Virus record (IMG/VR): IMGVR_UViG_3300045988_183127
Origin: a virus
Direction: 5' to 3' (one strand)
DNA length: 64,000 nt
The notes below the pieces were generated by a model. The model did not search any database. It had not been told where the DNA came from and was given only the letters and a program-made list of their open reading frames with translations. Each line of letters begins with the position of its first letter. The first letter of the stretch is position 1. Below, in pieces: positions 2,855 through 62,448 of the stretch. Made by a program: the position numbers and the translations under genes.

Positions 2855-2968
2855 TCTTTATTTGATATTTTGAATTAAAGAACAACCATCAATATCAAAA
2901 ACAACTGTTTTATTTTTTTTCTCAACTGGCAAAATAAATCGTCTCTGTTATCCCCAAATTTATCCCTA
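2855..2968 (-). pseudogene. frameshifted remnant of a paralog of the C-terminus of the 3398..4072 gene
   Basis: reverse strand translates DKFGDNRDDLFCQLRKKIKQ / (frame change) KTVVFDIDGCSLIQNIK*, matching RFRDDRDDLFQLKKGKTVTFDIDKGSLIQDIK* of 3398..4072; ~110 nt nucleotide similarity to 3398-3510. Confidence 0.45.
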
Positions 2969-3382
2969 CTATAAATTAAGATTAATTTCCTTTTCTATTG
3001 TATTTTTAGGAACGTACAGCTTAATTTCTTTAATTCCTAATGAAGTCTTCTTTATCTCTGCATAAGCCTGTTCATCATTGTTTAATGTATCATAGATTGT
3101 TACTTTATCTCTGTTCATCTTGAAATACTTCTTACCATCGTCTTCTGTAATCCGATAAGCTGTTATGTATTCCTGTGAATCAATATTTCCCGAACCTAAT
3201 ACAAATGAGCCTTCATATTCTTTATCCGTGCTGATACTGTAAAGCTGGGCTTCTTCTGTGGTTTCTTTTGAAAATTTCTTAATTTCATATCTAAGCCCAA
3301 GCTGCAATGCTGTTATAATCGAAATAAGTGTAATACTAAATGTTAAACATATAACTAAATTAAAAATTTTATCTCTATTCAT
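2969..3382 (-). CDS. hypothetical protein with N-terminal signal anchor
   Basis: 137-aa ORF; hydrophobic N-terminus LVICLTFSITLISIITALQLGL. Confidence 0.5.
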   Translation of the reverse strand: MNRDKIFNLVICLTFSITLISIITALQLGLRYEIKKFSKETTEEAQLYSISTDKEYEGSFVLGSGNIDSQEYITAYRITEDDGKKYFKMNRDKVTIYDTLNNDEQAYAEIKKTSLGIKEIKLYVPKNTIEKEINLNL

Positions 3383-7924: not shown

Positions 7925-8953
7925 TTACATAAAAGATTGTATACTATATCCTTTCCGTCTGAAACGAACTCTAATCTTTTTTATTGCTTTTGATTCAATC
8001 TGTCTGATTCGTTCTCTGGAAACATTCCATTCAGTACCTATATCTTTTAAAGTTTTAACCTTTGAACCATATCCCATTCTACTCTTAATTACATATAATT
8101 CTCTAGGAGTGAGACAATCTTCAACTTCTTTCCAAAGCAGTTCATTCATTTCTTTTTGAATAATCGTATCTTCAACTTTAGGTTCAGGAGCTTCTATATA
8201 ATCAGCCAAACACGAATCGTCATGGCCTTCGTCACTTTGAATAGGTGCATCTAATGAAACCAATTCATTAAAGCTCTGAATATGTACAAGCATTTCTTTA
8301 GTTAAAAGAGGATATCTTTGTTTTACTACATCATATAATTCATCAATTGTAGGTTTTCTTTGAAGTTTATTAGTTAAATCCACAAATGTAGTCTTAACAA
8401 AAGAATCCTGCTCTCTTACATGTACAGGGAATCTAACTAATAAATCATAATTGGCTAATTCTCTATATATACTCTGTCTAATCCAATGAGTTGCATAAGT
8501 TGAAAATGCATATCCTAATTTATAATCAAACATTTGTATAGCTCTGTATAACCCGAAAATACCGGCCTGACATAAATCATCCATTTCAAAACTTTGCGTT
8601 TTAGCTGTAACAGCTTTAGCAATACTGATGACTAAACGCATATTAGATAAAATCAATTTTTCGGTTATTTCTTTTTTCTTTTTAGGATGTTTTTTTATCT
8701 CTTCAAATAATTTAAGAGTTTCATCTTTGGATAAAACCGGATAATCAGCGAATGATTTAATATAATAAGTTATATTATTTTCTAATAATAGTTTCTCTTT
8801 TTCATTTAAAATCTCTTTATCATTTAAAATATCGGTATAATTATCCTCTGATAAAATATTTATGTTTTCTATTGGTTTATTTGTATCAAATAATTCATCA
8901 ATATATTCATCTTTATTGTTTTTTTTATTTAATAATAAATTCTTATCTGCCAT
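7925..8953 (-). CDS. sigma-70 family RNA polymerase sigma factor
   Basis: region 2 LCQAGIFGLYRAIQMFDYKLGYAFSTYATHWIRQSI and region 4 HTH TLKDIGTEWNVSRERIRQIESKAIKKIR; acidic N-terminus; SD AAGAGGAG. Confidence 0.8.
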   Translation of the reverse strand: MADKNLLLNKKNNKDEYIDELFDTNKPIENINILSEDNYTDILNDKEILNEKEKLLLENNITYYIKSFADYPVLSKDETLKLFEEIKKHPKKKKEITEKLILSNMRLVISIAKAVTAKTQSFEMDDLCQAGIFGLYRAIQMFDYKLGYAFSTYATHWIRQSIYRELANYDLLVRFPVHVREQDSFVKTTFVDLTNKLQRKPTIDELYDVVKQRYPLLTKEMLVHIQSFNELVSLDAPIQSDEGHDDSCLADYIEAPEPKVEDTIIQKEMNELLWKEVEDCLTPRELYVIKSRMGYGSKVKTLKDIGTEWNVSRERIRQIESKAIKKIRVRFRRKGYSIQSFM

Positions 8954-9364: not shown

Positions 9365-10276
9365 TTATTGCTCCTTAATTTCTATATTGATATTTTCAAA
9401 ACACTTAATTACAAAATAAATTAAACTCATTATGCAGACTATTAAAATGCATACCTGTAAATATATATTTGTTATAAAAAACGTAAATGGTATTAATGCC
9501 ACACAGTTTATTAGAATATGATATAAGCTGCTAAGTTTAATACCATATTTATCTCTTACAGCACCTAACAAATATCCGCCAAAAGCATATATAGGGAATA
9601 AAATAAAATTAAAATGAATTATTCCAAATAAAACTGCTTGGATTATATTTGCACATAATTTATTGTTGCTTGCTTTATATGCATAGCCATAAATTATATA
9701 TCTAAAAGTCAATTCCTCAATAATAGGTGCCACAAAAGTTGCTATTATTGTAGATATAATTGTTTTTATTCCTAAACTTCCATAATCAATATCTGATACA
9801 TTTACAAAATGCATTTGAATTCCTGAAATAAGCTGCAATATTACAGAAGTTAATATGAAACAAAATACAAAATTCCAATTTACTACTAATTTATTTTTCA
9901 TAAACAAATCTTTTTTATAATTGTAAAATGAGCTTTTTATACAAATAATGCACATAACAAACATTAATGTATATGTTGATATTGTATAAATTAATCGAAA
10001 TCCTTCATAATCTATTTTAGTTGAAATTCCTCCTGCATCATTCATATACATATTTAATAGACTGTCTATAAATGTTGCAATAAACATTGAAAATAAAATT
10101 ATAAAAACAGAAATAATAAATGGAATAAAAATCTTTATATACTGTTTTGATTTTGAAAAGAAAGAATTACTTTTCATTTTGTTTTTTACCATAAAATCCA
10201 TATAAGAATTTAAATCATGCTTATTTTTTTTATTTCTTAATTCCTTAATATTACTGTTATTGTTACTAAGTATCAT
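9365..10276 (-). CDS. CPBP (CAAX/Abi) family intramembrane metalloprotease
   Basis: multi-TM; motifs EELTFRY, FGIIHF, HILIN. Confidence 0.7.
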   Translation of the reverse strand: MILSNNNSNIKELRNKKNKHDLNSYMDFMVKNKMKSNSFFSKSKQYIKIFIPFIISVFIILFSMFIATFIDSLLNMYMNDAGGISTKIDYEGFRLIYTISTYTLMFVMCIICIKSSFYNYKKDLFMKNKLVVNWNFVFCFILTSVILQLISGIQMHFVNVSDIDYGSLGIKTIISTIIATFVAPIIEELTFRYIIYGYAYKASNNKLCANIIQAVLFGIIHFNFILFPIYAFGGYLLGAVRDKYGIKLSSLYHILINCVALIPFTFFITNIYLQVCILIVCIMSLIYFVIKCFENINIEIKEQ

Positions 10277-10305
10277 ATATTTTCCTCCAACCTTTCTAAT
10301 ATATA

Positions 10306-10315
10306 TATGACAGAT
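10306..10315 (-). promoter_or_regulatory. TCTGTCATAT box (representative type B with second element TTTTTATGTAAA 16-17 nt upstream on the gene strand)
   Basis: 31 nt upstream of CPBP gene start; distal element at 10327-10340 preceded by hairpin TACCGCTG...CAGCGGTA. Confidence 0.6.
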
Positions 10316-10388
10316 ACAATTTTAAAAATCTTTACATAAAAAAATACCGCTGCAATAAACAGCGGTAAAACATAAAATAAATATTAAA

Positions 10389-12074
10389 TTAGCATTTGCG
10401 TACTATTGAAGGTGCTGACATATCAGGGTTAATGAATTTCTTGCATAAATGTTCAATTCCGGTTGTTGAATCAAGCCAATATAAATAATCCCCGTCATTA
10501 TCTACCAGATATTCATTAATAGAATCAAGAACATCGTTTACTTCGGAAACAGTACAAATAAATCTATATGAAGACTTATTTTTCTTTAAAGGTTTAACAG
10601 ATTTAGCAATAATCTGATATACAGTTTCGTCATCTGAAGATCTAAAATCATCTACTTGAATTTTTCCTGATAAACATAATTTAGCATCATTAACAAGTAA
10701 GTCTCTAATATTTGCATAATCTTTAGAAAAACATACACCATTAATAGAACCTGTTTTATCTTCTACCTCAAAAGTTACCCATTCGTATCCATTTCTATCC
10801 TTTCTTACAACAAGATTTTTAATTATACCAGATACATCGTTAACTTCTGTTGAAATATCAGAAATGGGATCTGTATAAATATTATACTCATCAATTGGAT
10901 GCCCTGTAATATAAACGCCTAACACTTCTTTTTCATCATTTAGAATCTGACCTAAATCATCTTCTACATAATCAATATCTATATTTTCAAGATCATCTTC
11001 TAAGCTTTCTATAACTGTCTTAGCTGAATTGATACGTTTAATTATGGAATCTTTAGTTGGCATCTTTTTTGAAGTAACTTGAAAGGAAATATTTTCTTCT
11101 GAAATTCTTTCCTTAAACTCATCAAGATCAATATAATCTTCCACAAATTCAATAACTTTACTTGCGTTTTCAATAAACTTACTCTTCTCTCTGATTTTCT
11201 TAATTGTATCCTGAATTTCTTTCATACAAATCATATCTAATGATATCATTGTTCTTGTATAACCAAGGCAATCGAAAGCACCTGCTTTAATTAAGGAACT
11301 TAATGCTTCTGCATTAATATTTGTTCGTTTGATAAAATCCTTAATATCAGAATATTCTCCATTAACATTTCTATCTTCAATAATTTTAGCTGCTTCTGCT
11401 CCAACATTCTTAATATTACTCAGACCATACAAAATGTTCCCATCTACAACATCACAATGTAAATTTGAAGCATTAATGTCCGGAGGCAATACCTTTACTC
11501 CAAAATCAAGGGCATCACTAATATCATCAGCGACTTCATCAATCTTATCAGTATGATTTATTACATTTGTAAGATAATAAGCCGGATAATAATACTTAAG
11601 AAAAGCTGTCCAATATGATGTAACAGCATAAGCAGTGGCATGTGACTTATTAAACGCATACTTAGCAAAGTCAACCATTGCATCCCAAATCTTATGAGCT
11701 ATAACTTCTGGAATTCCATTTGCAATACAACCTGGTACTAATGCTTCATTTTCTTTTTTAGTATCAGCATTACCATATACAAAAGTGTGTCTTTCAGCAT
11801 CAATCTCATCCTGATGTTTTTTTGACATAGCTCTACGGACTAAATCAGAACGCCCCCATGTATATCCTGCTAAATCACGAACAATCTGCATTACCTGTTC
11901 CTGATAAACTATCTGTCCATAAGTAGTTGACAAAATTGGCTCTAATTGAGGACATAAATATTTAATCTTAGATGCATCCTTTTTACCTTCTATGAAATCA
12001 GGTATAAACTTTTCAGGACCAGGACGATATAAAGCATTCATTGCTATTAAATCTTCAATACCTGTTTTATTCAT
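10389..12074 (-). CDS. DNA polymerase III alpha (DnaE-like) C-terminal half: fingers/OB, separately encoded
   Basis: begins IEDLIAMNALYRPGP, has YGQIVYQEQVMQI, FNKSHATAYAVTSYWTAFLKYYYPAYY and an OB-fold-like region. Confidence 0.85.
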   Translation of the reverse strand: MNKTGIEDLIAMNALYRPGPEKFIPDFIEGKKDASKIKYLCPQLEPILSTTYGQIVYQEQVMQIVRDLAGYTWGRSDLVRRAMSKKHQDEIDAERHTFVYGNADTKKENEALVPGCIANGIPEVIAHKIWDAMVDFAKYAFNKSHATAYAVTSYWTAFLKYYYPAYYLTNVINHTDKIDEVADDISDALDFGVKVLPPDINASNLHCDVVDGNILYGLSNIKNVGAEAAKIIEDRNVNGEYSDIKDFIKRTNINAEALSSLIKAGAFDCLGYTRTMISLDMICMKEIQDTIKKIREKSKFIENASKVIEFVEDYIDLDEFKERISEENISFQVTSKKMPTKDSIIKRINSAKTVIESLEDDLENIDIDYVEDDLGQILNDEKEVLGVYITGHPIDEYNIYTDPISDISTEVNDVSGIIKNLVVRKDRNGYEWVTFEVEDKTGSINGVCFSKDYANIRDLLVNDAKLCLSGKIQVDDFRSSDDETVYQIIAKSVKPLKKNKSSYRFICTVSEVNDVLDSINEYLVDNDGDYLYWLDSTTGIEHLCKKFINPDMSAPSIVRKC

Positions 12075-12110
12075 TTTAAATTTCTCCTTTCAATTCATAA
12101 CTATATAATT

Positions 12111-12120
12111 TATGACAGAA
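12111..12120 (-). promoter_or_regulatory. TTCTGTCATA box (representative type A: terminator hairpin + T-run + box)
   Basis: box 38 nt upstream of DnaE C-terminal gene ATG; hairpin AGCGTCCAA/TTGGACGCT at 12131-12150 abuts it. Confidence 0.6.
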
Positions 12121-12160
12121 AATTAAAAAAAGCGTCCAATTTTGGACGCTTGCATAAATA

Positions 12161-12466
12161 TTAAAAAGAATACTTGTTACATATATTTTCTTTTATATAA
12201 GTGATCAAATTTTTAGCATAATCTATTCTGTCTTTTAATTTATCAATATCATTAATATCATATGAAATATTACCAGTAATACTAATATAAAAATCATCTT
12301 TTATGGTTTTAATTTCAATATCATAATATGGAATCTTTGGAGTAAAAAAAAATCTTATGACTTTACCTGTTCTTGAATCTCTTCTTAATAGAATTTTATA
12401 TGTTTTATTATCGTATTCATCTATTATCCATGGACCGGATTCATATGTTCTAATAAAAGTTACCAT
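12161..12466 (-). CDS. hypothetical protein
   Basis: 101-aa ORF. Confidence 0.45.
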   Translation of the reverse strand: MVTFIRTYESGPWIIDEYDNKTYKILLRRDSRTGKVIRFFFTPKIPYYDIEIKTIKDDFYISITGNISYDINDIDKLKDRIDYAKNLITYIKENICNKYSF

Positions 12467-12849
12467 TATCTTATTTCTTCCTCTCTGTTATCTTTATTAA
12501 TTTTAGTATGAATTACATCTGGCATAATTTTATCTTCATCATCTTCTCCGCCTAAATCTAAATCAATATCTGATAGTTCATTTGTGTCAATATTGTTTGT
12601 TATATTACTAATATTAACACTTTTACAATTTTGAGTCATTGCCTTTATAACATCATCTATAGTTTTAGCATCTCTACCGATTCCGTCAAGATAAAAAGCA
12701 GCCGTTACCTGGGCGCAAAAATCTGCGATTATATGTCTATCAGTTGTTTCAGGGCAAAACTTAGGAACATTATAATATTCACAATCTCTATTGATTTGGG
12801 AACACGCAGCTATTGCAGCTTCATGTTTAATTCTCCGATTTTTATCCAT
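12466..12849 (-). CDS. hypothetical protein
   Basis: 127-aa ORF. Confidence 0.45.
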   Translation of the reverse strand: MDKNRRIKHEAAIAACSQINRDCEYYNVPKFCPETTDRHIIADFCAQVTAAFYLDGIGRDAKTIDDVIKAMTQNCKSVNISNITNNIDTNELSDIDLDLGGEDDEDKIMPDVIHTKINKDNREEEIR

Positions 12850-13046
12850 AGACTGAATAGCTTCTCGTAATTCTTCTCCCTCAAGTGTAGCATATTTAAT
12901 TGGAGTTGAATAGTTTTGATGATAAACAATCTGTACATATTCTCCAAATGCGCCATATTGTAATTTAACATATCTAAATCATTCTCTCTATATTCATTAT
13001 CTGGCGAATTTATTGCATTTACTAATTCCTTAAATTCTTTAATCAT
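12810..13046 (-). CDS. hypothetical protein
   Basis: 78-aa ORF overlapping next gene by 40 nt; box 41 nt upstream. Confidence 0.35.
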   Translation of the reverse strand: MIKEFKELVNAINSPDNEYRENDLDMLNYNMAHLENMYRLFIIKTIQLQLNMLHLREKNYEKLFSLWIKIGELNMKLQ

Positions 13047-13146
13047 ATTTTTTTACTCTCCTTCCATTTATTGTTATAATAAATAAATGACAGAAAAATA
13101 AAATAACAAGTACCCATTAATAGGTACTTGTTATTAAGCATTTGTT

Positions 13147-13593
13147 TTAATTTGAATTACTCTTATCATGTACAAAATATAATTTTTGTATTAATTCAGA
13201 TTTTCTTTTTTCATACTGAAATAAATCATTACATTCACATGATAAAAAACTTGCAGCAGAATCAATCTGTTTTACAATTTCCTTTACTATACAATCAATG
13301 ATTTCCTTTGGTGATTCCAATAGTTTAATTAGGCCTAAATGCTCCCCTTCATGAATTATGAAAGCTGTATCTGGTGTCAAAACTAGCGTTGCTGTAGAGC
13401 CTTCAGAATCAAAATAACAGGATGCCGTATTATTGTTATAATAATTAATGCACATATCTAATAAGTCATTTGGGACATCAGTTAAATATGAAGCGTTCAC
13501 TCTACAATTTGTCTTTTCGAATTTAATATTACACCAACCATTTGTTAAAATTTCAATTATCATGATTTTCTCCTTAAATATAATTATAGGCAA
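13147..13593 (-). CDS. hypothetical protein
   Basis: 148-aa ORF. Confidence 0.45.
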   Translation of the reverse strand: MPIIIFKEKIMIIEILTNGWCNIKFEKTNCRVNASYLTDVPNDLLDMCINYYNNNTASCYFDSEGSTATLVLTPDTAFIIHEGEHLGLIKLLESPKEIIDCIVKEIVKQIDSAASFLSCECNDLFQYEKRKSELIQKLYFVHDKSNSN

Positions 13594-14465
13594 ACAATGT
13601 TGCCATTTTTAAGTATACTTATAATACTGTTAAGTTCATACAAACCTAATATCTGCTCACTAATTTCATTTAACATATTATCTGATACATTAGCGTTATA
13701 AGCATCAAGTTCTACATCTGTTTTTATTGTTGCTAAAATTTTTGACAACAAAATATTATCTTCACTATTTATTAAACAAGTTGAAATACTTTTTCCTTTA
13801 GACATATTAGATTCAATATCTGAAATATTCATATATATGTTAAACAAATTTCCATACTTATGTATTAGTTTACTTGCAGTTTTAGGACCAATACCTGCAG
13901 CTCCAGGAATATTATCCGATTTATCTCCCATTAATGTTTTTACATCAATAAACTGTTTAGGAGTAACGGAATACTCATTCATAATTTCTACCGGAGTCCA
14001 AATATCTTCCGGATTGTTTGGAACAACTAATGATACTAAATCATTACATAATTGTAACAAATCATGATCTGCAGATATAATATTAACCTTATTTCCGGCT
14101 TTACTTTCAATGGTTGAAATTGTTCCTATAATATCATCTGCTTCATATCCTTCTTTTTCAATAACACATATATTCATTGTTTTAAGAATAGGAACAATAG
14201 CCTGTCTCTGAATCTTAAATTCTTCCGGTGCAGGATCTCTAGTTGCCTTATACCCGTTATACATTAAATGCCTGAAAGTTGGCTTTGCAGTATCAAACGC
14301 AACAATTAATTCATCAGGACTATACTTTTCTTTCATATATAGAATTGTATTTAAAGCTCCTTTAATTGCATTAGTCGGAAATCCCTTTGAGGTTTTTAAT
14401 TCTGGAACACCGTAAAAAGATCTTCTGAGAATATAATTCCCATCAAAAATCATAATATTTTTCAT
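13584..14465 (-). CDS. 5-3 exonuclease / flap endonuclease (PolA N-terminal-like)
   Basis: H3TH motif LMGDKSDNIPGAAGIGPKTASKL; start reassigned to MKNIMIFDG because SD AAAGGAGAAAA and the box lie just upstream (track start 14540 lacks both). Confidence 0.85.
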   Translation of the reverse strand: MKNIMIFDGNYILRRSFYGVPELKTSKGFPTNAIKGALNTILYMKEKYSPDELIVAFDTAKPTFRHLMYNGYKATRDPAPEEFKIQRQAIVPILKTMNICVIEKEGYEADDIIGTISTIESKAGNKVNIISADHDLLQLCNDLVSLVVPNNPEDIWTPVEIMNEYSVTPKQFIDVKTLMGDKSDNIPGAAGIGPKTASKLIHKYGNLFNIYMNISDIESNMSKGKSISTCLINSEDNILLSKILATIKTDVELDAYNANVSDNMLNEISEQILGLYELNSIISILKNGNIVCL

Positions 14466-14573
14466 TAATTTTTCTCCTTTATAATTTTTAATATATTTAT
14501 GACAGAAAAAAAGCAGGAAACATAAGTCTCCCGCTTTCAAAAAATCTTATTCAGTTATGAAAAATTAAGATAT

Positions 14574-14831
14574 TCAATTTCTTTCACTTAAGAATTTTTC
14601 CACAGCATCTTCAACAGCTTCATATTCAGTAAGACCGTTACCTTCTGCGTAAGTATCATAAGCTGCTTCACCAATATCAATATAATCATTCTCAGTAATA
14701 TCAGAATGATACTGAGGCTGAATAATCTCTTTAGCTGTATTAATCATCCATGTTGAAACAAATTCCTTATGAGCCTTATAAATCTCATCATCTGTTAATT
14801 TTATTTCCTTACCATTTCTTATTATTGCCAT
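14574..14831 (-). CDS. hypothetical protein
   Basis: 85-aa acidic ORF. Confidence 0.45.
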   Translation of the reverse strand: MAIIRNGKEIKLTDDEIYKAHKEFVSTWMINTAKEIIQPQYHSDITENDYIDIGEAAYDTYAEGNGLTEYEAVEDAVEKFLSERN

Positions 14832-14843
14832 TATTTATTCTCC

Positions 14844-15113
14844 TTAGTTGTTATTATTTTCATCAGAATTATCATATATGACGCTTTCAATTATATTAAC
14901 TGCTGTATCTACATAAATAACTTCCTCGCCATCATCGTTAGAATATCCATCGTCATCATATGTACTTTCAGTCAGCCAACTTGCCTCAGAAACTTCTTTA
15001 GAAGCTTCTGAAATCTCGCTTATTAAAGTATTTTTAATGATATTCAACATATTCTTTTCTGTTTCTGATTCTGAAGTTTTAATAAAGTCATTTATAATAT
15101 TTAAAGTTTTCAT
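14844..15113 (-). CDS. hypothetical acidic protein
   Basis: 89-aa ORF. Confidence 0.4.
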   Translation of the reverse strand: MKTLNIINDFIKTSESETEKNMLNIIKNTLISEISEASKEVSEASWLTESTYDDDGYSNDDGEEVIYVDTAVNIIESVIYDNSDENNNN

Positions 15114-15128
15114 AAAATTCCTTTCTTT

Positions 15129-15587
15129 TTACAATGTACTTTTTATAACCTTAACAGGTTCTAATCTGCCGTTTATAAATGAAGCAGTTCCTAATGTTTT
15201 ATCAGTATTTTTAGAAGATTCAAAGAAATCATTTGCCATATCCTCATTTGAAAAATATGAATATTCTCCTGAATTGTCTCCGCAATCTGACTCATATCCT
15301 ATCCAAACATAATAAAATGAAAATCTTTCAAGGCTATCACTGTTGTCAGGGATTTCTCCATCCCAATCATCATTTTCTTTTATATCTTCTTCTAATTCAT
15401 ATTTAAACTCGCTCATCATATTAGGATCGTCTAAATACACACATTTATGGTAATTATCAACTGCAATTGCGCATTTCTGTCCTAATGGATGCAGTAAATA
15501 ATTCTTAGGCACTTCCAATAATGCTCCTATCATATCATTTACTGTTTCTAAGTTATTTTCCTTAATTTCAAATGCATTAGTTTTCAT
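15129..15587 (-). CDS. hypothetical acidic protein
   Basis: 152-aa ORF. Confidence 0.45.
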   Translation of the reverse strand: MKTNAFEIKENNLETVNDMIGALLEVPKNYLLHPLGQKCAIAVDNYHKCVYLDDPNMMSEFKYELEEDIKENDDWDGEIPDNSDSLERFSFYYVWIGYESDCGDNSGEYSYFSNEDMANDFFESSKNTDKTLGTASFINGRLEPVKVIKSTL

Positions 15588-15671
15588 AATTTTATTCTCC
15601 TTTTTAAATTTTATAATAATACAATGACAGAAAAATAAAAAAACTGGCTACTAATAGTAACCAGTTTAATT

Positions 15672-16661
15672 TTATAACTTTACAATTTTCTCATTAACTT
15701 CCATTCTAAATGTATTGATTTTGTCTATATCCGGCTCATCTGGCAATACAGAGTTTTTACATGCATTTTCAAACTTATTCTTGTATTCATCTACTATTTC
15801 AAAGAAATGTTTATTAGGGATTCCATTTTCATCAAGATATACACCATTTCTAATATCCATCAACAAATCATGTTCTTTAATTCTTTTCGTTTGAATTTTC
15901 CCTTCAGAAACTAAATCAATTCCCATCATATACAATCTAAGTAAATGCATACTATGTTTTGCTATTTTACCATGATTTAATGCATGTTCATTCCTTTTAC
16001 TTGTTTTCCGATAATCTCTTAAAGTGTTATTAAATTCCGAAAGCATTCCTGACAAATCTTCTATTGAACACTGTGTTGCAATAATATTGCATTTGATTTT
16101 GCCATCAACCAAATAAAAAGACACATTATTTTCATCTAAATTGTACTTATCGTTCATTTTCTTGGACATATTATTAAGCACTCCAGAAATGTGTCTATTT
16201 AATTCTTCTTCCGTTAAAGCAGCGTTAGTCTTCTGCTGCATACGGTATAACTGTTGTAATGCATATTCACTAAATGTATTAATACATCTATTCGATAAAA
16301 AAATATCTTTATTTTTTAATAAAAGCTCCCCAATTTCATTTTTATAAATATAATCATCTGTATCTAATCCTAAAAGTTCAATAGTGTTTGGATTGCATTT
16401 TGTTAATAAATCAATAATTTTGTCAAAACTATAAATAGTTGTATCTGTATTAACGTCTACAAAATTTTCAAAATCATTACCTAACAAGATATCTTCTTTT
16501 CTTCTAACAGCAACTCCTCTTATATCAATATCGCTTTCTGGAAGATTTGTCCCATATGCTCTGCTACCACCTAATCCAAGTATACAAATATTCTTATCTA
16601 AATTTTGATTTTCCTTTAAAAATGAATACTCAGGCATATTTAATATATTTTTATTTATCAT
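15672..16661 (-). CDS. Pol-beta superfamily nucleotidyltransferase
   Basis: GLGGSRAYGTNLPESDIDIRGVAV (GS..SDxD) near N-terminus, second acidic cluster LDTDD ~55 aa later. Confidence 0.55.
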   Translation of the reverse strand: MINKNILNMPEYSFLKENQNLDKNICILGLGGSRAYGTNLPESDIDIRGVAVRRKEDILLGNDFENFVDVNTDTTIYSFDKIIDLLTKCNPNTIELLGLDTDDYIYKNEIGELLLKNKDIFLSNRCINTFSEYALQQLYRMQQKTNAALTEEELNRHISGVLNNMSKKMNDKYNLDENNVSFYLVDGKIKCNIIATQCSIEDLSGMLSEFNNTLRDYRKTSKRNEHALNHGKIAKHSMHLLRLYMMGIDLVSEGKIQTKRIKEHDLLMDIRNGVYLDENGIPNKHFFEIVDEYKNKFENACKNSVLPDEPDIDKINTFRMEVNEKIVKL

Positions 16662-16683
16662 ATTCTCTTTCCTATCCTTGTAA

Positions 16684-16740
16684 TTGAATTACCCACAACT
16701 GGCTATTGTCGGTTGTGGTTTTTTTGCTTAATTGCGATAA
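16684..16740 (-). repeat. divergent copy (c5) of 57-bp 5-prime UTR repeat family
   Basis: TTATCGCAATTAAGCAAAAAAACCACAACCGACAATAGCCAGTTGTGG on gene strand, directly upstream of the nucleotidyltransferase SD. Confidence 0.5.
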
Positions 16741-16750
16741 TATCATTCTT

Positions 16751-17383
16751 TTATTTTCTAACAATAGCAGAAAAATCTACTGACTGTAAAATCTTAATGA
16801 TATCTTCTACTTCAGGACTTCTCCATGCAGTCATAGCATAGGTATGAGCGTACTCATCGTAATGATAATGATTTGCCTTTAGATGTTCAGCGGCTGCCTT
16901 TTCTGTTAAAAACATTGTGTTTTCATAAATTTTATCTCTATATGCATAACAGGTGAAAGTATATCTGCCATAATTATGCTCATTCAACCAAGTCTTTAAA
17001 TCATCAAGATCAGCTAAACATTCCTCATAATCATTATCTTCTTTTGATGTAACATAATATCCATCATATTCTTTTGAAATAACCCAAGAATCACCGTTTT
17101 CTTCAAATTCCTTATTAAAAAATACAATTGCATCATCAATATTATCAGCAACTTCTTCTACAGCTTCATTATCGATTAGTGTTACACCGTCTTCATATCC
17201 TTCTGGAACAATACACTTTTCTTTTCCCATAATAACCCAAAATCGAGGATCAGCTTGTCCTACATGGTCCTGTGTATTTAATTCATGCTGCAAATCAGAC
17301 AAAAATTTAATTTCTTTATCTGTAATTTTATGTTTCTCTACTGTGTCTGGATGGTATTGTAAATGTTCATGAAATATTGCCAT
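16751..17383 (-). CDS. hypothetical acidic protein
   Basis: 210-aa ORF. Confidence 0.45.
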   Translation of the reverse strand: MAIFHEHLQYHPDTVEKHKITDKEIKFLSDLQHELNTQDHVGQADPRFWVIMGKEKCIVPEGYEDGVTLIDNEAVEEVADNIDDAIVFFNKEFEENGDSWVISKEYDGYYVTSKEDNDYEECLADLDDLKTWLNEHNYGRYTFTCYAYRDKIYENTMFLTEKAAAEHLKANHYHYDEYAHTYAMTAWRSPEVEDIIKILQSVDFSAIVRK

Positions 17384-17410
17384 ATTTTTCTCCTTAAACT
17401 TTATTTATTT

Positions 17411-17647
17411 TTATTCAGTATAGTATTGAAATGCACAATCATACATTTGTTTCCCAGTTATCTGATCTACAAATATAGGGCAATGCCAATCCTTATCAAA
17501 TTCTGTTTCCTTACACCATTCATTAATAACTCTAGTAGTAATTGGTGTGACAAATACATATAAATCTGATTCATGGTGAAATATATCTTTTGCAGAATAT
17601 CCAGCCTCAATAAACCGTTGCATAAGAGTTTTATTATTTTTCTCCAT
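17411..17647 (-). CDS. hypothetical protein
   Basis: 78-aa ORF. Confidence 0.4.
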   Translation of the reverse strand: MEKNNKTLMQRFIEAGYSAKDIFHHESDLYVFVTPITTRVINEWCKETEFDKDWHCPIFVDQITGKQMYDCAFQYYTE

Positions 17648-17696
17648 AATATTGTTCTCCTTTATTTATTATAATTTAAAAGAAATATGACAGAAA

Positions 17697-17725
17697 AAAC
17701 GCACATCATAATGACATGCGTTTTA
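17697..17725 (-). terminator. intrinsic terminator after the DnaE N-terminal gene
   Basis: stem AAAACGCA/TGCGTTTT followed by a T-run on the gene strand, fused to the TTCTGTCATAT box. Confidence 0.6.
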
Positions 17726-17751
17726 ATACAAAATATTCAATTAACTATTCA

Positions 17752-18507
17752 CTATGAGCATAACTTCTTAAGGTTATTCCTCATACCGGCTGACTCAAAC
17801 TGGAAAACATTCTTAGTTCTTCCTTTTGCATATACTTCTTTGTATACCTTATCAGCTTTAGGACCCTCTAATGGAATATTCATTACATCAATTACTTCTC
17901 CTGTATCTCTCTGAATCATTCTGAGTGTGTCAGTAATAATTGTAAGAGTTTTTAATCCAAGAAAATCCATTTTTAATAATCCATTAGCTTCGCACTGAAT
18001 CATGTCCATTTCTGTAGTTTTAATTCCCTTTTTTCCATCTCTAATAGGAATATAATCAGTAACATCATTACTATCATAAATAATAACACCTGCGGCATGT
18101 TGTCCGTATGTCGTAAGCATACCTTCACAATGAGCTGCAATATTAAGAATAGAAATAGCATCTGGATTACTATTATATTCATCCTTTAAGAAATCTAACA
18201 AAGAAATGCTGTCCTGAATATTAATGCCTAATTCATCAACCTTATTAGTATCTTTCATGCCAACAATATCTTCAAAATTAGTTGCTTTAGCAGGCACTTT
18301 CTTACGAATCTGATCTCCTAAAGATAAGAATTTCTTTTCATCATCATAAGCTTTCTTTCCATAATATCTTGCAGCATCTCTGATAGCACCTTTAGCCTGC
18401 TGTCTTGATTCTGTAATAATTCCAACAACAGCTTCACTACCATATTTAGCTCTTACATACTCAATTGTCTTTTCTCTTACTCCAAGAGCAAGATCGCTAT
18501 CGATATC
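17752..18507 (-). CDS. DnaE-like polymerase N-terminal gene, exon 2
   Basis: begins DIDSDLALGVREKTIEYVRAKYG...AKGAIRDAARYY, ends FQFESAGMRNNLKKLCS*; track start is a TTG inside the intron. Confidence 0.8.
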   Translation of the reverse strand, partial: DIDSDLALGVREKTIEYVRAKYGSEAVVGIITESRQQAKGAIRDAARYYGKKAYDDEKKFLSLGDQIRKKVPAKATNFEDIVGMKDTNKVDELGINIQDSISLLDFLKDEYNSNPDAISILNIAAHCEGMLTTYGQHAAGVIIYDSNDVTDYIPIRDGKKGIKTTEMDMIQCEANGLLKMDFLGLKTLTIITDTLRMIQRDTGEVIDVMNIPLEGPKADKVYKEVYAKGRTKNVFQFESAGMRNNLKKLCS

Positions 18508-18932
18508 CAAATATACCCCTACTTTCGTAGTACTTTAACACTTGTATAAGTGGGATTAGACTATATCTCAATATAATATTGTTAATATTATATTTCAACG
18601 CACTTCCAACTGTAACCATTCTCAGTTGTACTCCTTAAAAAGGATAGTCGTTACACTTTAAAATAAATAATATTATATACGAACAATTTTTTATTTATAT
18701 AATATTATTTATAATCTTAGCACGGTATCGCCTGCTATCCTTCAATATCTTTTATATAAAAATATTAGGACCGTAGGTTCTCTTACGAAGCTGCTTCGTC
18801 TATGGGTTAAGCTATATATCCTGTTGTGACACTTTATATAGCAGTCTTATTCAACTTCTACCGTTAGCACTTAATAATAAAATATTAAGCACACCTCTGA
18901 GTTAGAGTCCACGCTGAACGCCCAATATATTT
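18508..18932 (-). ncRNA. putative group I self-splicing intron (ORF-less, ~425 nt) in the DnaE gene
   Basis: interrupts the conserved ERVSMP|DIDxD motif; exon 1 ends with U, intron ends with G; GC-rich structured-looking sequence with stops in all frames. Confidence 0.6.
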
Positions 18933-20726
18933 AGGCATACTTACTCTTTCTGGATTTAAGAATCGTTCAAAAATCAGATTATACTTAAATGGATCAATTC
19001 CGGTAATACCAAGTAAATATGTAACCAATGAACCGGCACCTGAACCTCTTCCAATGCCTATTCCAATTCCGGTATTATAATTGTGAGCCTTAACATACTC
19101 TTTTGCACCTTCAATTGTTAAAGGTACTTCTGATAGTTTATCCATAGGTACTAATCCACAAATTCTTCCATATTCCAAGAAGTCCTTTACAATTAAATGA
19201 TAATCGGCAAAGCCCATCTGAATGATAATATTAAGTTCGTATTCCATTCGTTTCTGATGTTCTTCATCCCATCCTTTTCCGTTAGGATATCTCCAATTAA
19301 TTCCCTTAATTGCTTCAGATCTTAATAATTCGTTTGAGTCCTTATTCTTATCAAATACTGGATAATGATTAGATTTTTCTGGAATATAAGCACATCTTTT
19401 CCCAATTACATTTAAGTTATTAAGTGCTTCTGCAACCTGATCATCTGTTAATATAGCTGATAAAGCCTGAGCAAGTTCGTAAGGTGTCTTTACATATAAT
19501 TCTTTATCTGATTCCGACTCACTTATCTTAATAAATCTTAAAAATTTAGCTACATTACGCATATCAATACTTCTATCAGAATTATCTGCCATATGTGCAT
19601 CATTAGCAGCAACTAATGGGATATTATGCTTCCTTGCTAACTGAGCTAACACAGGATATGTCCTGCTTTCCATTTCAAGTCCATGATTCTGAACTTCAAT
19701 GTAATAATTACCTGCTCCAAAAATTTCCTGATAAAAAAGCATTGTCTTTTCTGCTTCAGACATTAATTCTATTGGACTTTTCTTTAATGATTCATAATGC
19801 TGTATCTTATTTTCATGATTAATGTATTCCTCTACCTTAAGACTTATATCCTTTAACTCGGCTTTCTTAGCATTAACTAATTTTCTGACATTAGGAATTT
19901 TATCTTTAGCTTCCAGAATTTTATTATTTATCTCCTCATATTCATTAATCAGTTTAATAAGCTCTGGATCATCATCATTTAAACACTTCCTTGCATCTCT
20001 TAATTTTCTTGAGATCTGTGTCCTTTCTGATTTAAGTTCCTTGGAATCACGAATATTAATCAATTCATCTAAATCTGCCGATACCCTTTCAAATTCATCT
20101 TTAGCTGAAAGATATTCTTTATCATCAGGACTTATACAATCACGTATCACTAGCTCGTCTTTTTCAGTAGTATGCTGCTGTGCTTTTCTTTCTCTGTTAA
20201 TCATTTTATCCAAAACATCATCTGATAATAATTGCAGAGCTGGTGCACCCGAAACGCAAGCAGAAGTTGCTATTATATCACCGTTAAAGTTATATTTCTT
20301 TAAATCTGATATTGTAATAACAGGCTTTCCCATTCTTTTTTCAGAAGCCTTAGAATTTAACTTATCAATAATATGCTTGCCTCTTTCTGAAGTGGCTAAC
20401 ATAATAATATGGCCAATCTGTTCATTTATCTTAAATGGTGGCACTTCAATATAAGCCTCTACGCCATAAATGATATTAAATGGATGTTCCTCAGTACTTA
20501 TTTTCTTAGCGTAATCAATACATGTTTGCATTGCTGAAAATGATGCATGGTCCGTAACAGCAAATTTAGTATATCCTGCATTAAATGCAGCATCTAAATA
20601 ACTTTTAGGTTCATCTACGGCATCAAACAAAGAGCCTCCTGGATGGTTATGTTCACACACTGTAACTCCTGATTCAATAACCTTTTTTGTTAATTCTCCA
20701 ATTTTTACATGTTCAAACATTGACAT
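18933..20726 (-). CDS. DnaE-like polymerase N-terminal gene, exon 1 (PHP domain, palm)
   Basis: ends [40 protein letters not shown]; track ORF then reads 14 intron codons ([15 protein letters not shown]) to a stop. Confidence 0.8.
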
Positions 20727-20837
20727 TAAATTTCCTCCTTTATAAATTTTATAATTAATACATGACAGAAAAAATACACCAGTTGACTAATCTCAACTGG
20801 TGTATAAATACACATTATTTAATTGTTAATTATTTTA

Positions 20838-21989
20838 TTATTCTACCTTAACAACGTCTCCTCTATCTGATGTTTCAGTAATAACAATATACTTGATTTC
20901 CATATTGTCGTTTGCAAGAGCAATTCTTGTTACATTATCTTCCTTACTTGTATCGACAATCCAATCATATCCTTCAACTGCAGACATTATCTTTGAATCA
21001 GTAATGATTTTATCAACATACTCTCCAATCATAATTCTGTCTTCAAGTCTGATAAAATCAGCACTATTCCAACCAATTGAAACAGATTTAATATGTGAAG
21101 GGATATTAATGCTATTGAGCCTCATTAATGTACCACCATTAAGAGCAATCATTTCTGCTTTAATATGATCCATTTCGATTAATTCCTTAGTATTAGTAAT
21201 TGTATCTAAATGATAATCACAATTATTGCATTCATCATAATCTCCACAATCATTTTCGCAGTCATAACCACAATCACAATCAGGATTATAATAATTATTA
21301 TCACATACCTGCTCTGTATATTCAATGACCCATGTAGGTACATTCATTGAATTTCTTACAGTAATGACATTATTTATTGGTGCGTCAAGCATTAAATAAC
21401 TTGAAATATAATTCTTTGCACCATCATAAACGATAATTTCAGCATTATCAAAATATTCAGCGAAAATATCTTTTCCATTAAAATCCTTCTTTGTTTCAAA
21501 GTGTGTATAGGAAGTCTTTAGTATCACATATTTGTCACATACACCTATAACTTCCGGCATTGGAATTGAAACTGGAATAAGTTTCTTAAACTTATCCTCA
21601 TCCGGCTTATAAGCAAATAAATCAATATAATCATCATGTTCTGTTGTGTTTTCTCTAGGCAATACAGATAATAAAAGCTTACCTGGAACAGATGTAACGA
21701 TACTCTTAATTACCAGTGAACCCTGCTGTGTAGCAGCAACACCATCCTTGAGTAAAATTCCGTCTTCAACTGAATATCCATCTGGAATATCTGGGACATT
21801 AGGATTGCTGATAAGTCTAAAAGCAATTGCGTTAGATGATGATATCATAACAGATATATCCTCGTTTACTTCACCATTTTCTAAAAGACAAGCCGTTCCT
21901 ACGCCATCGGTAACAGATGTAATTAAATACTGTCTGTTGTCAACCTTGTTTAATACTGTTACATTTTCTAAAATTTTGTTTTCTCTCAT
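20838..21989 (-). CDS. hypothetical protein, paralog A, with Cys/Asp-rich insert
   Basis: N-terminus ENVTVLNKVDNRQYL and C-terminus TRIALANDNMEIKYIVITETSDRGDVVKVE match 22122..23171; insert CDNNYYNPDCDCGYDCENDCGDYDECNNCDYH. Confidence 0.5.
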   Translation of the reverse strand: MRENKILENVTVLNKVDNRQYLITSVTDGVGTACLLENGEVNEDISVMISSSNAIAFRLISNPNVPDIPDGYSVEDGILLKDGVAATQQGSLVIKSIVTSVPGKLLLSVLPRENTTEHDDYIDLFAYKPDEDKFKKLIPVSIPMPEVIGVCDKYVILKTSYTHFETKKDFNGKDIFAEYFDNAEIIVYDGAKNYISSYLMLDAPINNVITVRNSMNVPTWVIEYTEQVCDNNYYNPDCDCGYDCENDCGDYDECNNCDYHLDTITNTKELIEMDHIKAEMIALNGGTLMRLNSINIPSHIKSVSIGWNSADFIRLEDRIMIGEYVDKIITDSKIMSAVEGYDWIVDTSKEDNVTRIALANDNMEIKYIVITETSDRGDVVKVE

Positions 21990-22121
21990 AATGAAAAATC
22001 TCCTTTTTTTATTTTATTCAAATAAAATATGACAGAAAAATTAAAACAAAATAGGATTAAAGCATATACATGCCTTAACCCTACTTTTTAAATTAATTAT
22101 AGAGAATTCTGTTAATATCAA

Positions 22122-23171
22122 TTACTCTATGGTTATGATGTCTCCTCTATCTCTTGTTTCAGAAATCACAAGAGTCTTTATCTCCATAGTATTTGTATTA
22201 GCAAGAGAAATTCTTGTAACATGATCCTTAGATGTAATATCAACAATCATATTGTAACCTGCAAGCTCAGCAACTATCTTATCTGGGATCTTATATGTGA
22301 TATCATTAATATACCACTTGCCTGAAGAAGCTTTAATCAGGCTTGCATTATATCCCTTTGAAATTGATTCTGGCACACTGTCAATTGCTGTTGTCTTATA
22401 AAGACTTAATGAATGGCCTTCAGAAGCAACAAATCTTAATGTAATATAATCATCTTCCTTAATAACTCCATCAGAATCGACTACTGTATCTGCTTCAATT
22501 GCGAAAATTGTTTCATTAGGTGCCTTAACAGAATCTACAGCCTTAATTGGCTCCGCAAAAGAAACATGATCAACAACTGCATCAGACATTACATCATATA
22601 ACATGATTGCTGCAGCATCAAAAATATTATCTGTTTCAATAGTTCCATCTTCAAGCTTCTTATCCTTAGTATAAGTTCTTGAATATGTTATATATAACTG
22701 CATCTTATTCTCAGAAGAAGCAATGATTGTAACTTCTGGAATAGATCTTCTGATAAGCTTATTAAACTTATCTGACTCAACTGTATATGACATAATATCG
22801 AAATAACCTTCTCTTGGTTCTCTTGGTTCAACAGATAAAATAAGTCTTCCTGCAACACCTACAATAATACTATTAATTACAAGTGAACCCTGTTCTGTAG
22901 CAGGGACTCCATTCTTAAGCAAAATTCCGTTTTCTACAGTATATCCAGTTGGAACATCTGGAATATTAGGATCATCAATCAGCTTGTAAGCTATTGCATT
23001 ATTAGCTGTAATTACTGCAGTAACCGAATCATCAAGTGAACCATCCTCCTTGATTAACTTGGCTGTTCCTTTAATGGAATCACCCGAACCATCAACATTA
23101 ATTACCTGGTAATTCTTACGGTCTACCTTGTTTAATACTGTTACATTAGTCTTAATCTTGTTTATTCTCAT
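22122..23171 (-). CDS. hypothetical protein, paralog B
   Basis: TNVTVLNKVDRKNYQ ... TRISLANTNTMEIKTLVISETRDRGDIITIE; own box at 22028. Confidence 0.5.
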   Translation of the reverse strand: MRINKIKTNVTVLNKVDRKNYQVINVDGSGDSIKGTAKLIKEDGSLDDSVTAVITANNAIAYKLIDDPNIPDVPTGYTVENGILLKNGVPATEQGSLVINSIIVGVAGRLILSVEPREPREGYFDIMSYTVESDKFNKLIRRSIPEVTIIASSENKMQLYITYSRTYTKDKKLEDGTIETDNIFDAAAIMLYDVMSDAVVDHVSFAEPIKAVDSVKAPNETIFAIEADTVVDSDGVIKEDDYITLRFVASEGHSLSLYKTTAIDSVPESISKGYNASLIKASSGKWYINDITYKIPDKIVAELAGYNMIVDITSKDHVTRISLANTNTMEIKTLVISETRDRGDIITIE

Positions 23172-26785: not shown

Positions 26786-27670
26786 TTATTTTGTTTGATA
26801 AAGAAGATATGACAGAAAATTATTTACATTAGAATTTAAATTGTTATTTCTTATTACTAAAATATTTCTGATAACAATTATGAAAAATATAATGCTCATT
26901 ATGATCAGACAAATATTTTGTAACATAACAGGCATAAAAGAGTACAATACACTACTTGCATTAACTCCAATATGAATTAAAATAGAGGGCAATAAATTAT
27001 CTGTTTTTATATATACATAGGCTAATATAATACCGAAAATAAATGCATAAGTGCTTTGAATAATATTAAAATGCACTAATCCAAAAACGAAAGCTGATAT
27101 ATAAATTGAGCTTACATCTGGTTTCTTAAAGAATTTGTTTTGCTTTATTATTTTTGTAATACCGTATCTAAATATTAATTCTTCAACAACTGGCGTAATA
27201 ACACCTGTTATTAAGAGTACTTGAAGCCAATTTCCGGTTACAGCAACATTCATTAAAGAATTATATGAGTTAGAAACTAAATTATTAGGTAAGGAATCTA
27301 TTACCACAGAAGCTAAAAAATTCATAATAATGCCTGTTAAAATAAATGTCTTGACATCTTTTAATGATAATTTTGAAATAAATATGATTGATTTATTAAC
27401 TTTATATTCTTTAAGCACAACAAACCCAAGTATTATAATGTCAGAAACAAATAATGCAGGCATAATTAATTTACTAAGCATACTAAGATAACTATATGAA
27501 AGTAAATTACCTGTTTCTATATATACATATAAATTATCATACCATTGTGAATCAGAAAACAATTTAAAAATAAATACACCCAATGTACATACAGTCTGAG
27601 TAATAAGAAAAGCAAATATTATTCCAATAATCTTTGTAATTTGTTTAATCATTATTTTGTTGACCTCCAT
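26786..27670 (-). CDS. CPBP (CAAX/Abi) family intramembrane metalloprotease, second copy
   Basis: multi-TM; EELIFRYG, FGLVHFNI, HIGVNAS. Confidence 0.7.
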   Translation of the reverse strand: MEVNKIMIKQITKIIGIIFAFLITQTVCTLGVFIFKLFSDSQWYDNLYVYIETGNLLSYSYLSMLSKLIMPALFVSDIIILGFVVLKEYKVNKSIIFISKLSLKDVKTFILTGIIMNFLASVVIDSLPNNLVSNSYNSLMNVAVTGNWLQVLLITGVITPVVEELIFRYGITKIIKQNKFFKKPDVSSIYISAFVFGLVHFNIIQSTYAFIFGIILAYVYIKTDNLLPSILIHIGVNASSVLYSFMPVMLQNICLIIMSIIFFIIVIRNILVIRNNNLNSNVNNFLSYLLYQTK

Positions 27671-50904: not shown

Positions 50905-51588
50905 ATGTCCAGAAAATCTAAGTATTCTATAGAACAGCGAGTACAAGCATGTGAAGACTATCACAATGGAACTCGTAGTTTAGAAGAAATATGTATAGCT
51001 CTCGGAACTACCAGAAAGAAAACTATCCGTGAGTGGTTAAAAAAATATGAGAAGTACGGAGTATCTGCTTTTCAGGAAAAGTCATATAACAAAAGTTATA
51101 CAAAAGAATTTAAAATTCAAGTAGTGGAAGAATATATAAGTGGTTATGGTTCACTAGAGGAACTGATTGTAAAATATGATATTTCTTCTACAACCCAACT
51201 ACGAAAATGGATTTCAGTGTATAATGCCAATAGAGAACTTAGGGACTATTGTCCAAAACCGGAGGTCTATATGGCAGAAGCAAGAAGAAAAACAAGCATT
51301 GAAGAACGCAAAGAAATCGTAAAGTATTGTATCGGACATAATCGTAATTATAAAGAAACTGCAAGTGCTTATGATGTCTCATACAATCAAGTCTATTCTT
51401 GGGTAAAAAAGTATGATGCACTAGGTGAAGAAGGATTAACAGATAAGCGTGGATGTCATAAAACGGATGAAGAGGTAGACGAATTGGAACGTCTTCGTCG
51501 GGAAAATGTACGTTTAAAGAAGCAACTCAAAGAAAAGGATATGTTAACGGAACTGTTAAAAAAAGTACAGGAATTCGAAAGGATGTGA
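50905..51588 (+). CDS. IS3-family transposase OrfA (HTH, leucine zipper)
   Basis: 227 aa; slippery A AAA AAG at 51558-51564 near its end. Confidence 0.8.
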   Translation: MSRKSKYSIEQRVQACEDYHNGTRSLEEICIALGTTRKKTIREWLKKYEKYGVSAFQEKSYNKSYTKEFKIQVVEEYISGYGSLEELIVKYDISSTTQLRKWISVYNANRELRDYCPKPEVYMAEARRKTSIEERKEIVKYCIGHNRNYKETASAYDVSYNQVYSWVKKYDALGEEGLTDKRGCHKTDEEVDELERLRRENVRLKKQLKEKDMLTELLKKVQEFERM

Positions 51589-62400: not shown

Positions 62401-62448
62401 ATCTTTTTCTCCTTTAAATTTTTGTTATTTAAAATATGACAGAAAAAA

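Follow-up and report, generated by a model that had tools for sequence, protein, structure and literature searches.

In a 64,000-nucleotide stretch of viral DNA (IMG/VR record IMGVR_UViG_3300045988_183127, hereafter the window), which comes from a large, phage-like element of gut Lachnospiraceae, the DnaE-type replicative DNA polymerase is encoded by two separate genes and carries no intein. The two cistrons lie 5.7 kb apart on the minus strand, with the gene for the N-terminal half (N gene) upstream and the gene for the C-terminal half (C gene) downstream. Their products cover complementary parts of one polymerase, and the same division is conserved in related elements. Judged from sequence, DnaE in this element is probably a non-covalent, two-subunit family C polymerase in which the fingers domain is completed in trans. 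DnaE (PolIII alpha), the replicative polymerase of bacteria, is a drug target and has so far been known as a single chain or, in cyanobacteria, as a chain re-ligated via a split intein. A conserved, intein-free, two-chain DnaE would imply that the fingers domain can be assembled from two polypeptides.

Structure of the two genes

Two minus-strand open reading frames (ORFs), 18885..20726 and 17752..18510, represent the two exons of the N gene. Joining 18933..20726 to 17752..18507 is in frame and yields a product of 849 aa that ends ...FQFESAGMRNNLKKLCS and is followed by TAG and then TGA. Exon 1 (18933..20726) encodes the PHP domain, with an insertion of ~150 aa, and the start of the palm, and its end, ...ERVSMP, matches that of an intronless contig, L002. 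Exon 2 (17752..18507) encodes the remaining palm, including the catalytic DxD and third Asp, together with the thumb and the first helices of the fingers. Its last residues before the two stops, LKKLCS, form a tail that is kept in at least 17 clusters of N-half homologues. A terminator hairpin is located directly 3' of the stops at 17696..17724 on the minus strand (RNA fold -13.9 kcal/mol, 13-bp stem, U-run).

The C gene (10389..12074, minus strand) encodes 561 aa, starting MNKTGIEDLIAMNALYRPGP, that comprise the remaining fingers, the HhH domain, the OB fold and a C-terminal tail, so that both halves sum to 1410 aa, a full-length DnaE. On the same strand, a copy of the promoter-like box TCTGTCATA at 12111..12119 is followed by the ribosome-binding site (RBS) AAAGGAG and the ATG at 12074. 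Hairpin searches placed the terminator of the preceding gene upstream of this box, at 12130..12151, and another terminator hairpin 3' of the C gene at 10345..10367. The N gene is likewise preceded on the minus strand by a terminator-like hairpin at 20774..20805 (13-bp stem followed by a T-run; RNA fold z = -4.3 over 20727-20815) and by a box variant, TCTGTCATG (20761..20769), which has one mismatch to TCTGTCATA and is succeeded by a AAAGGAGG RBS and ATG.

The interval between the halves (12161..17647) holds 10-11 minus-strand genes, the first of which has a TCTGTCATA box at 17686..17694 on the same strand. Pfam and PHROGs scans identified among them a FEN-type 5'-3' exonuclease (13584..14540), an RlaP-like nucleotidyltransferase (15672..16661) and a phrog_3205 gene (16751..17383); the rest are small genes of no assigned function.

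A first-pass annotation, made from the sequence of the window, had already described an intein-free DnaE encoded by two separate genes 5.7 kb apart, and its ORFs, coordinates and end sequences were confirmed. This includes the two exons of the N gene and its TAG-TGA end, with which the intronless L002 agrees, as well as the C gene with its own box at 12111 and a hairpin upstream. The terminator that it assigned to the N gene exists, although at 17696..17724 and not at 17697-17725. Its eleven intervening genes, including the FEN and nucleotidyltransferase genes, are present, but two small ORFs overlap and the count is therefore 10-11. The hairpin and box variant upstream of the N gene are additions to that description.

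Complementarity of the two products

Aligning both products to polymerase profiles had been put forward in the annotation as a check, and the coverage proved complementary and non-overlapping. The PHP profile (PF02811) matches in exon 1 with E = 6e-19, while PF07733 is matched by exon 1 over positions 1-102 and by exon 2 over 103-260. The fingers profile PF17657 is divided between the genes, the N gene matching positions 1-59 and the C gene positions 63-162, and HHH_6 (PF14579) and the tRNA_anti-codon OB fold (PF01336) were matched in the C gene only. The PDIDSD motif, which contains the catalytic DxD (the first two catalytic aspartates, which we take to be D401 and D403 in E. coli numbering), straddles the exon junction. 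GLLKMDFLGL of the N half aligns to E. coli 550-559, including D555, and all three catalytic aspartates sit in the N half. The finger motifs YQEQVMQI, RRAMSKK and FNKSHA are all located in the C half, as seen in alignments to the structures 2hpi, 2hnh and 5lew. With the catalytic aspartates in one half and the finger motifs, HhH and OB domains in the other, an active enzyme would need both chains. The PHP domain, the Pol-beta-like palm with three Asp and the fingers/HhH/OB region of a DnaE-type family C polymerase are thus all present, but on two polypeptides instead of one.

The ~150-aa insertion in the PHP domain (N-half residues ~167-320, window ~19770-20230) is rich in Lys, Glu and Leu and coiled-coil-like. 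It is missing from bacterial DnaE, against which tblastn matches span residues 26-166 and 321-597 only.

When the N tail and the C head are joined, the sequence is colinear with the DnaE of Taq, M. tuberculosis and E. coli, and the break maps between E. coli L623 and Q624 and between Taq L682 and K683. Approximately four residues had been thought to be missing here; none are, and the fused junction is in fact 3 residues longer than in E. coli or Taq. The accompanying proposal that the break falls in a short loop agrees with the colinear alignment and with an AlphaFold2 (AF2) model of exon 2 fused to residues 1-274 of the C half. This model was built on a 70-sequence alignment and reached a predicted local distance difference test (pLDDT) score of 91 and a predicted template modelling (pTM) score of 0.78; a single-sequence run gave a pLDDT of 36 and was discarded. 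In the model, the break (between residues 252 and 253) is in a surface loop of six residues that connects helices 241-251 and 258-268, and the model superposes on solved DnaE structures at TM scores of 0.69-0.78. The break of cyanobacterial DnaE, between FAEY and CFNKS, lies ~130 residues downstream of the break described here.

Conservation of the split in related elements

Two IMG/VR contigs from different metagenomes, L001 and L002, are colinear with window positions 10300-20800 at 98.3-98.9% nucleotide identity, save for an intron polymorphism, and contain the same 5.7-kb gap, so that three independent assemblies have an identical layout. Among these three genomes, the ratio of nonsynonymous to synonymous polymorphism (pN/pS) was 0.01-0.03 in exon 1 and 0.07-0.09 in the C half; both halves are under strong purifying selection.

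Clusters of homologues were taken from a collection of 5.8 billion proteins. Approximately 30 C-half clusters (41-99% identity, 540-660 aa) have no PF07733 domain and start 11-84 residues before LYRPGP, and at least 17 N-half clusters (808-893 aa) have neither HhH nor OB domain and end 1-4 residues after ...FQFESxGMRxxLKxL; the starts of the former and the ends of the latter fall at the same loop, only a few residues apart. A protein search with exon 2 alone returned mostly short fragments. In one subclade of C halves (P0012, P0016-18, P0021, P0022, P0025 and P0030), IEDLIAM is preceded by an extension of 45-85 aa with a loose ...FL...GL....L.I motif, which might be an added docking element.

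The two halves co-occur in all six lineages with enough flanking DNA, in the same orientation and with N upstream; a search of related genomes for the same split, which the annotation had also proposed, was in this way successful. The gap between the halves ranges from 93 bp in L090, where it consists only of a hairpin, a TGTCATA box and an RBS, through 2.0 kb in L085 (FEN, DUF3232 and one small ORF), 2.25 kb in L089 (four small ORFs), 3.9 kb in L087 (AAA_5 and a CobT/vWA protein) and the 5.7 kb of the window (FEN, RlaP-like nucleotidyltransferase, phrog_3205 and small unknowns) to 18.4 kb in scaffold_3127, the content of which was read in part.

A megablast search of the 11-kb region against GenBank phages gave no match, and tblastn against reference phages, plasmids and GTDB genomes matched nothing but contiguous DnaE, at no more than 41% identity; these collections have no member of the split clade. 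Two sequences from metagenome-assembled genomes (MAGs), L121 and L146, with 49-55% identity over the C head, were considered as split relatives and rejected, both being contiguous bacterial DnaE.

A second break site and a probable re-fusion

The enzyme is divided at a second position in some relatives. The N genes of L092, P0261 and P0263 continue through LYRPGP..EYIEG, and the corresponding C genes (L092, P0032-P0035) start ~17 residues before TYGxIVYQEQ. This second break corresponds to the next inter-helix loop of the AF2 model (285-293), one loop downstream of the first. The halves of L092 (7314-9911 and 10001-11611) adjoin with a gap of 89 bp.

Relationships were examined with neighbour-joining (distance) trees, one of the C region and one of the N region, from which the number of fission events is uncertain. 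In both trees the split forms fall in one clade, whose sisters are contiguous phage-type DnaEs (P0029, P0259/P0265 and P0267-70), with the bacterial Lachnospiraceae DnaE further out than these. The clade of site-1 split forms together with P0247 and P0261 has 100% bootstrap support, and its internal branching order is unsettled. P0247 (L094, 6001-10212) is a full-length DnaE of 1403 aa that nested among site-1 split forms in 92.5% of 200 bootstrap replicates. Its junction, LKELLHDGKGSIEDII, is non-canonical in that it resembles an N tail plus a C head and has no L-x-P-x-x-IED linker. The nesting and this junction together suggest that P0247 is probably a secondary re-fusion of the two genes.

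Alternative explanations

Post-translational ligation of the halves by a cryptic or atypical split intein, or by another form of protein ligation as in cyanobacterial DnaE, might be considered since DnaE is a classic split-intein host, with metagenomic split inteins at other sites (PMC2677866), and since an intein-bearing homologue, P0319, occurs in the same search space. We nevertheless regard it as very improbable. The N halves end 1-4 residues past LKxL and the C halves start 4-12 residues before IEDLIAM, and tails and heads this short (1-12 residues) leave no room for intein halves. No Hint or intein domain was recorded in ~50 half-proteins by the same pipeline that flags the intein of P0319, and neither a Cys/Ser with an N-intein nor an HN-Cys/Ser/Thr motif was found, even in the C halves with 45-85-aa extensions; the earlier conclusion that no split intein is involved holds. 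The P0319 intein (C..HN) is inserted between TYGI and CVYQEQ, a site that differs from both break sites, and a tie between the break and an intein insertion site was rejected for this reason. Joining at the RNA or DNA level, whether through intron halves spliced in trans, ribosomal bypass or a programmed loss of the 5.7-kb segment, is hardly to be expected either, even in a gene that already contains an apparent group I intron and in a genome rich in mobile elements. Against it stand the tandem stops and terminator at the end of the N gene, the RBS and ATG of the C gene, the mere 93 bp of hairpin, box and RBS in the L090 gap, and the variation of gap content and length from 93 bp to 18.4 kb among relatives. 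Furthermore, Rfam found no intron-like RNA at either edge of the break, and the Pfam and PHROGs scans found no recombinase among the window gap genes. No direct repeats were found that could excise the window gap to give an in-frame fusion, the only repeats there being the box/RBS modules. HNH, GIY-YIG and LAGLIDADG domains had no match among the window gap genes or in the gaps of L085, L087, L089 and L090, nor was a recombinase or intein seen in those gaps, and tRNAs or suppressors that would hint at stop-codon recoding were looked for and not found.

Other alternatives concern whether the two genes form a working polymerase at all. Fragmented DnaE calls are common in metagenomes, many of the homologue matches are contig-end fragments, and bacterial DnaE fragments starting MKNFMKELKP resemble ORF-calling artefacts. 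An assembly or sequencing artefact, which the first-pass annotation had named as a possible source of error, or a recent inactivating disruption that left a decaying dnaE pseudogene, is however highly unlikely here. The architecture agrees to the base in three independent assemblies, the break point is kept in proteins down to ~41% identity, the catalytic and finger motifs are intact and selection acts on both halves. The halves could also have ceased to be one polymerase and have taken on separate roles, e.g. as a PHP nuclease (N half) and an OB/HhH DNA-binding factor (C half), perhaps paired with host proteins. The distance of up to 18 kb between the genes would suit such roles, as would the NCBI name of the C half, 'OB-fold nucleic acid binding domain-containing protein', and joint function is for now deduced from sequence. 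This is a less remote alternative than the preceding ones but still an unlikely one, as both halves are found together in every lineage with adequate context and polymerase-specific motifs are kept on both sides of the break. In addition, the full-length P0247 among the split forms and the second break one loop away indicate that the same enzyme works fused or split.

Proposed assembly, expression and origin

In the two-subunit polymerase that we favour, the N subunit (849 aa, after self-splicing of the intron) would contribute the PHP domain, the palm with its three Asp, the thumb and the first three finger helices. The C subunit (561 aa) would contribute the remaining finger helices with YQEQ, RRAMxKK and FNKSH, and the OB fold together with the duplex-binding HhH domain. 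On its own, neither subunit would be a polymerase; the two would associate non-covalently and so complete the helical fingers domain. The two-subunit family C reading offered by the annotation is supported at the level of sequence, where all tests agreed with it.

Expression of the two genes may be coordinated by a shared element. The window has 32 copies of the 9-mer TCTGTCATA where 0.8 would be expected (e.g. at 62435-62443, 22028-22036, 17686-17694, 12111-12119 and 10306-10314), 28 of them on the coding strand; the promoter-like boxes of the two polymerase genes have the form TCTGTCAT(A/G). Typically, a hairpin and T-run come immediately before the box, and an AAGGAG RBS and start codon follow 25-45 nt after it. 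The box probably acts as a promoter specific to this element; a sigma-70-family gene is located at 7925..8953. A separate hairpin, box, RBS and ATG belong to each half, the box being perfect at the C gene and having one mismatch at the N gene, and related boxes (TGTCATA and TCTTTCATA) are present within the 90-bp gaps of L090 and L092. Both halves thus appear to belong to one promoter class, and a box of the same class ahead of both genes would keep them co-expressed. A subset of TCTGTCATA copies has TTATGTAAAAA ~20 nt upstream.

The split may have originated when a stop codon and a ~90-bp terminator-promoter-RBS module were inserted into the fingers loop, a state that one relative still shows. 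Gene cassettes with the same regulatory modules would later have accumulated in the new intergenic site. We tentatively suggest that gene fission is driven by the elements' own ~90-bp module (terminator hairpin, TCTGTCATA box and RBS), in the manner of the PeSL cassettes of T4-type phages, though we consider this rather doubtful. If true, module-driven fission would account for break sites at two independent positions, for gaps of 93 bp to 18 kb and for the occasional re-fusion. A single insertion would then give a viable replicase of two subunits and at once a new site at which gene cassettes could land. The polymerase subunits might also come to be regulated independently or exchanged, and the clade would constitute a natural series on the splitting of an essential multidomain enzyme.

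Several considerations weigh against the picture of two co-expressed, associating subunits. No other polymerase was seen within the window, but its 64 kb are part of the genome and a second polymerase may conceivably be encoded elsewhere. Since the structure was modelled as a single fused chain, the heterodimer interface is a prediction, and the physical association of the halves and their polymerase activity are deduced from sequence. The promoter role of the TCTGTCATA box is read from its position, and the hairpin sequences differ between modules, so that a mobile 'cassette' is conjecture.

Comparison with known split enzymes

The principle of a split polymerase is established for family B, and the two-gene DnaE is best read as an analogue of the family-B enzymes that T4-like phages and PhiKZ encode in two pieces. 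What is new is the extension to the bacterial-type replicase, together with the natural series of break positions and gap sizes and the likely re-fusion. The T4-related Aeromonas phages 25 and 44RR (Petrov et al. 2006, as reviewed in PMC2988022) have a family B polymerase split into gp43A and gp43B, which are encoded by two cistrons with no intein and which, in the case of phage 25, co-purify and are active. According to the same review, only untranslated intercistronic sequence separates the two genes in 44RR, as in the 93-bp gap of L090, while phage 25 has extra DNA. These polymerases differ from the present one in family (B versus C), in the fold that is broken and in gap length (2-3 kb versus up to 18 kb), and in one case described there a seg homing endonuclease is located in the gap, of which none was found in the gaps scanned here.

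For the chimallivirus PhiKZ, DNAP-N and DNAP-C form a stable 1:1 complex with an active site from both chains (bioRxiv 10.64898/2026.09.30.755723). The subunits are distantly encoded there as well, and one domain is assembled from segments of both polypeptides, as is predicted here. However, the PhiKZ enzyme belongs to family B and is split in a lineage-specific palm insertion domain, whereas the present break lies in a canonical fingers loop. Iyer, Anantharaman, Krishnan, Burroughs and Aravind 2021 (PMC7824862) predicted a split PolIII alpha in group 2.2 jumbo phages (T4-like, Lak-type), in which two distant genes would likewise reconstitute one enzyme. That version is a minimal catalytic module without PHP, HhH and OB domains that accompanies a family-B replicase, and it is split inside the palm, between the NTP-binding and Mg/DNA-binding subdomains. 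In contrast, the window encodes a full-length DnaE, with PHP, thumb, fingers, HhH and OB all present, that is cut in the fingers between positions 59 and 63 of PF17657.

DnaE with split inteins has been reported from cyanobacteria (PMC3919608) and from three metagenomic 'fractured' loci with a homing endonuclease (PMC2677866). There are two genes in these systems also, but the halves carry an N-intein and a C-intein and are ligated by protein trans-splicing; an N-intein of ~100 aa starting with Cys/Ser, a C-intein ending in HN followed by Cys/Ser/Thr and a homing endonuclease in the scanned gaps were all looked for here and not found. As cited in PMC2988022 and PMC2677866, the NrdA of phage Aeh1 (Friedrich et al. 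2007), an essential phage enzyme, is split without an intein and its pieces reassemble non-covalently into an active enzyme; it differs in being a ribonucleotide reductase, and the mobE homing endonuclease that created its split is still in place there. In the full-text literature, subscription journals aside, we found no description of an intein-less full-length DnaE broken in the fingers domain.

This one clade, in which two break positions, a probable re-fusion and sister forms with a contiguous gene occur together, may serve as a guide for split-polymerase engineering and for studies of fingers-domain dynamics, as well as for work on the fragmentation of essential genes in phages. Annotation pipelines overlook the split DnaE, and viral replicase surveys will count too few of these genomes or score them wrongly.

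An intron within the N gene

The 425-nt interruption of the N gene (18508..18932, minus strand; free of ORFs in the window copy) behaves as a group I intron, an assignment that is mainly comparative. The IMG/VR contig L002, which is 98.5% identical, is without exactly these positions and reads AGTATGCCT joined directly to GATATCGAT, i.e. ...SMP followed by DID.... L001 carries this intron too, there enlarged by 514 nt (2869-3382) that encode an HNH endonuclease of 172 aa. Three allelic states hence occur in near-identical genomes: absent (L002, site between positions 3566 and 3567), ORF-less (window) and HNH-bearing (L001). The 5' exon end ...GCCU pairs with GGGC located 9 nt into the intron (P1, gcct/gggc), which places a U.G pair at the 5' splice site, and the last intron base is G. 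Rfam RF00028 gave a weak, sub-threshold match to the 3' core (23 bits against a gathering score of 50, E = 1e-3), and at the gathering threshold Rfam had no match in the whole window.

Relatives contain introns at or near the same site of the N gene, one of them with a LAGLIDADG gene (L091). Synonymous divergence (pS) among the three strains was 0.0065-0.0195 in exon 2 against ~0.06-0.08 in exon 1 and the C half, i.e. 3-9 times lower, which could reflect co-conversion during intron homing or chance, given the small counts.

The element and its other genes

The window has a G+C content of ~28%, and nearly all of its genes are on the minus strand. Near-identical contigs of 95 and 103 kb are listed as viral in IMG/VR, and the C half is present at NCBI in a 157-kb contig of a Lachnospira pectinoschiza MAG. 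The genes of the window include RecA, RecJ, two UvrD-like helicases, a DnaG-type zinc ribbon, FEN, a methylase, a sigma factor and RtcB. Of the window ORFs scanned, none was recognisable as a virion gene, and relatives carry ParA and Rep3; on these grounds a phage-plasmid is possible, and the element may be either a large phage or a phage-plasmid.

Some of the cargo is odd for a viral contig: a class-A penicillin-binding protein (PBP1-type transglycosylase/transpeptidase, 55771-58104), a GGDEF cyclase (58383-59516), an HD-GYP-like HD_5 protein (59656-60870), a flotillin/SPFH protein (31203-32777) and RtcB (62819-63976). A 312-aa protein (33531-34469) contains only the DnaG-type CHC2 zinc ribbon, with no Toprim domain recognised, and could be another shortened or split replication gene.

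Immediately upstream of the N gene are two tandem paralogous genes, 20838-21989 and 22122-23171 (383 and 349 aa), which are similar at their N and C termini and had no Pfam or PHROG match. The C gene is directly followed by a CPBP/Rce1-like membrane protease gene (9365-10276), as it is in L081 (11788-12696) and L085 (11828-12736). In L089, such a gene (13666-14778) is located one gene beyond the C half, and a second copy occurs in the window at 26786..27670. The sole large plus-strand gene of the window is a transposase at 51585-52550 (phrog_157, E = 3e-87), which coincides with a reversal of GC skew at 50-52 kb.

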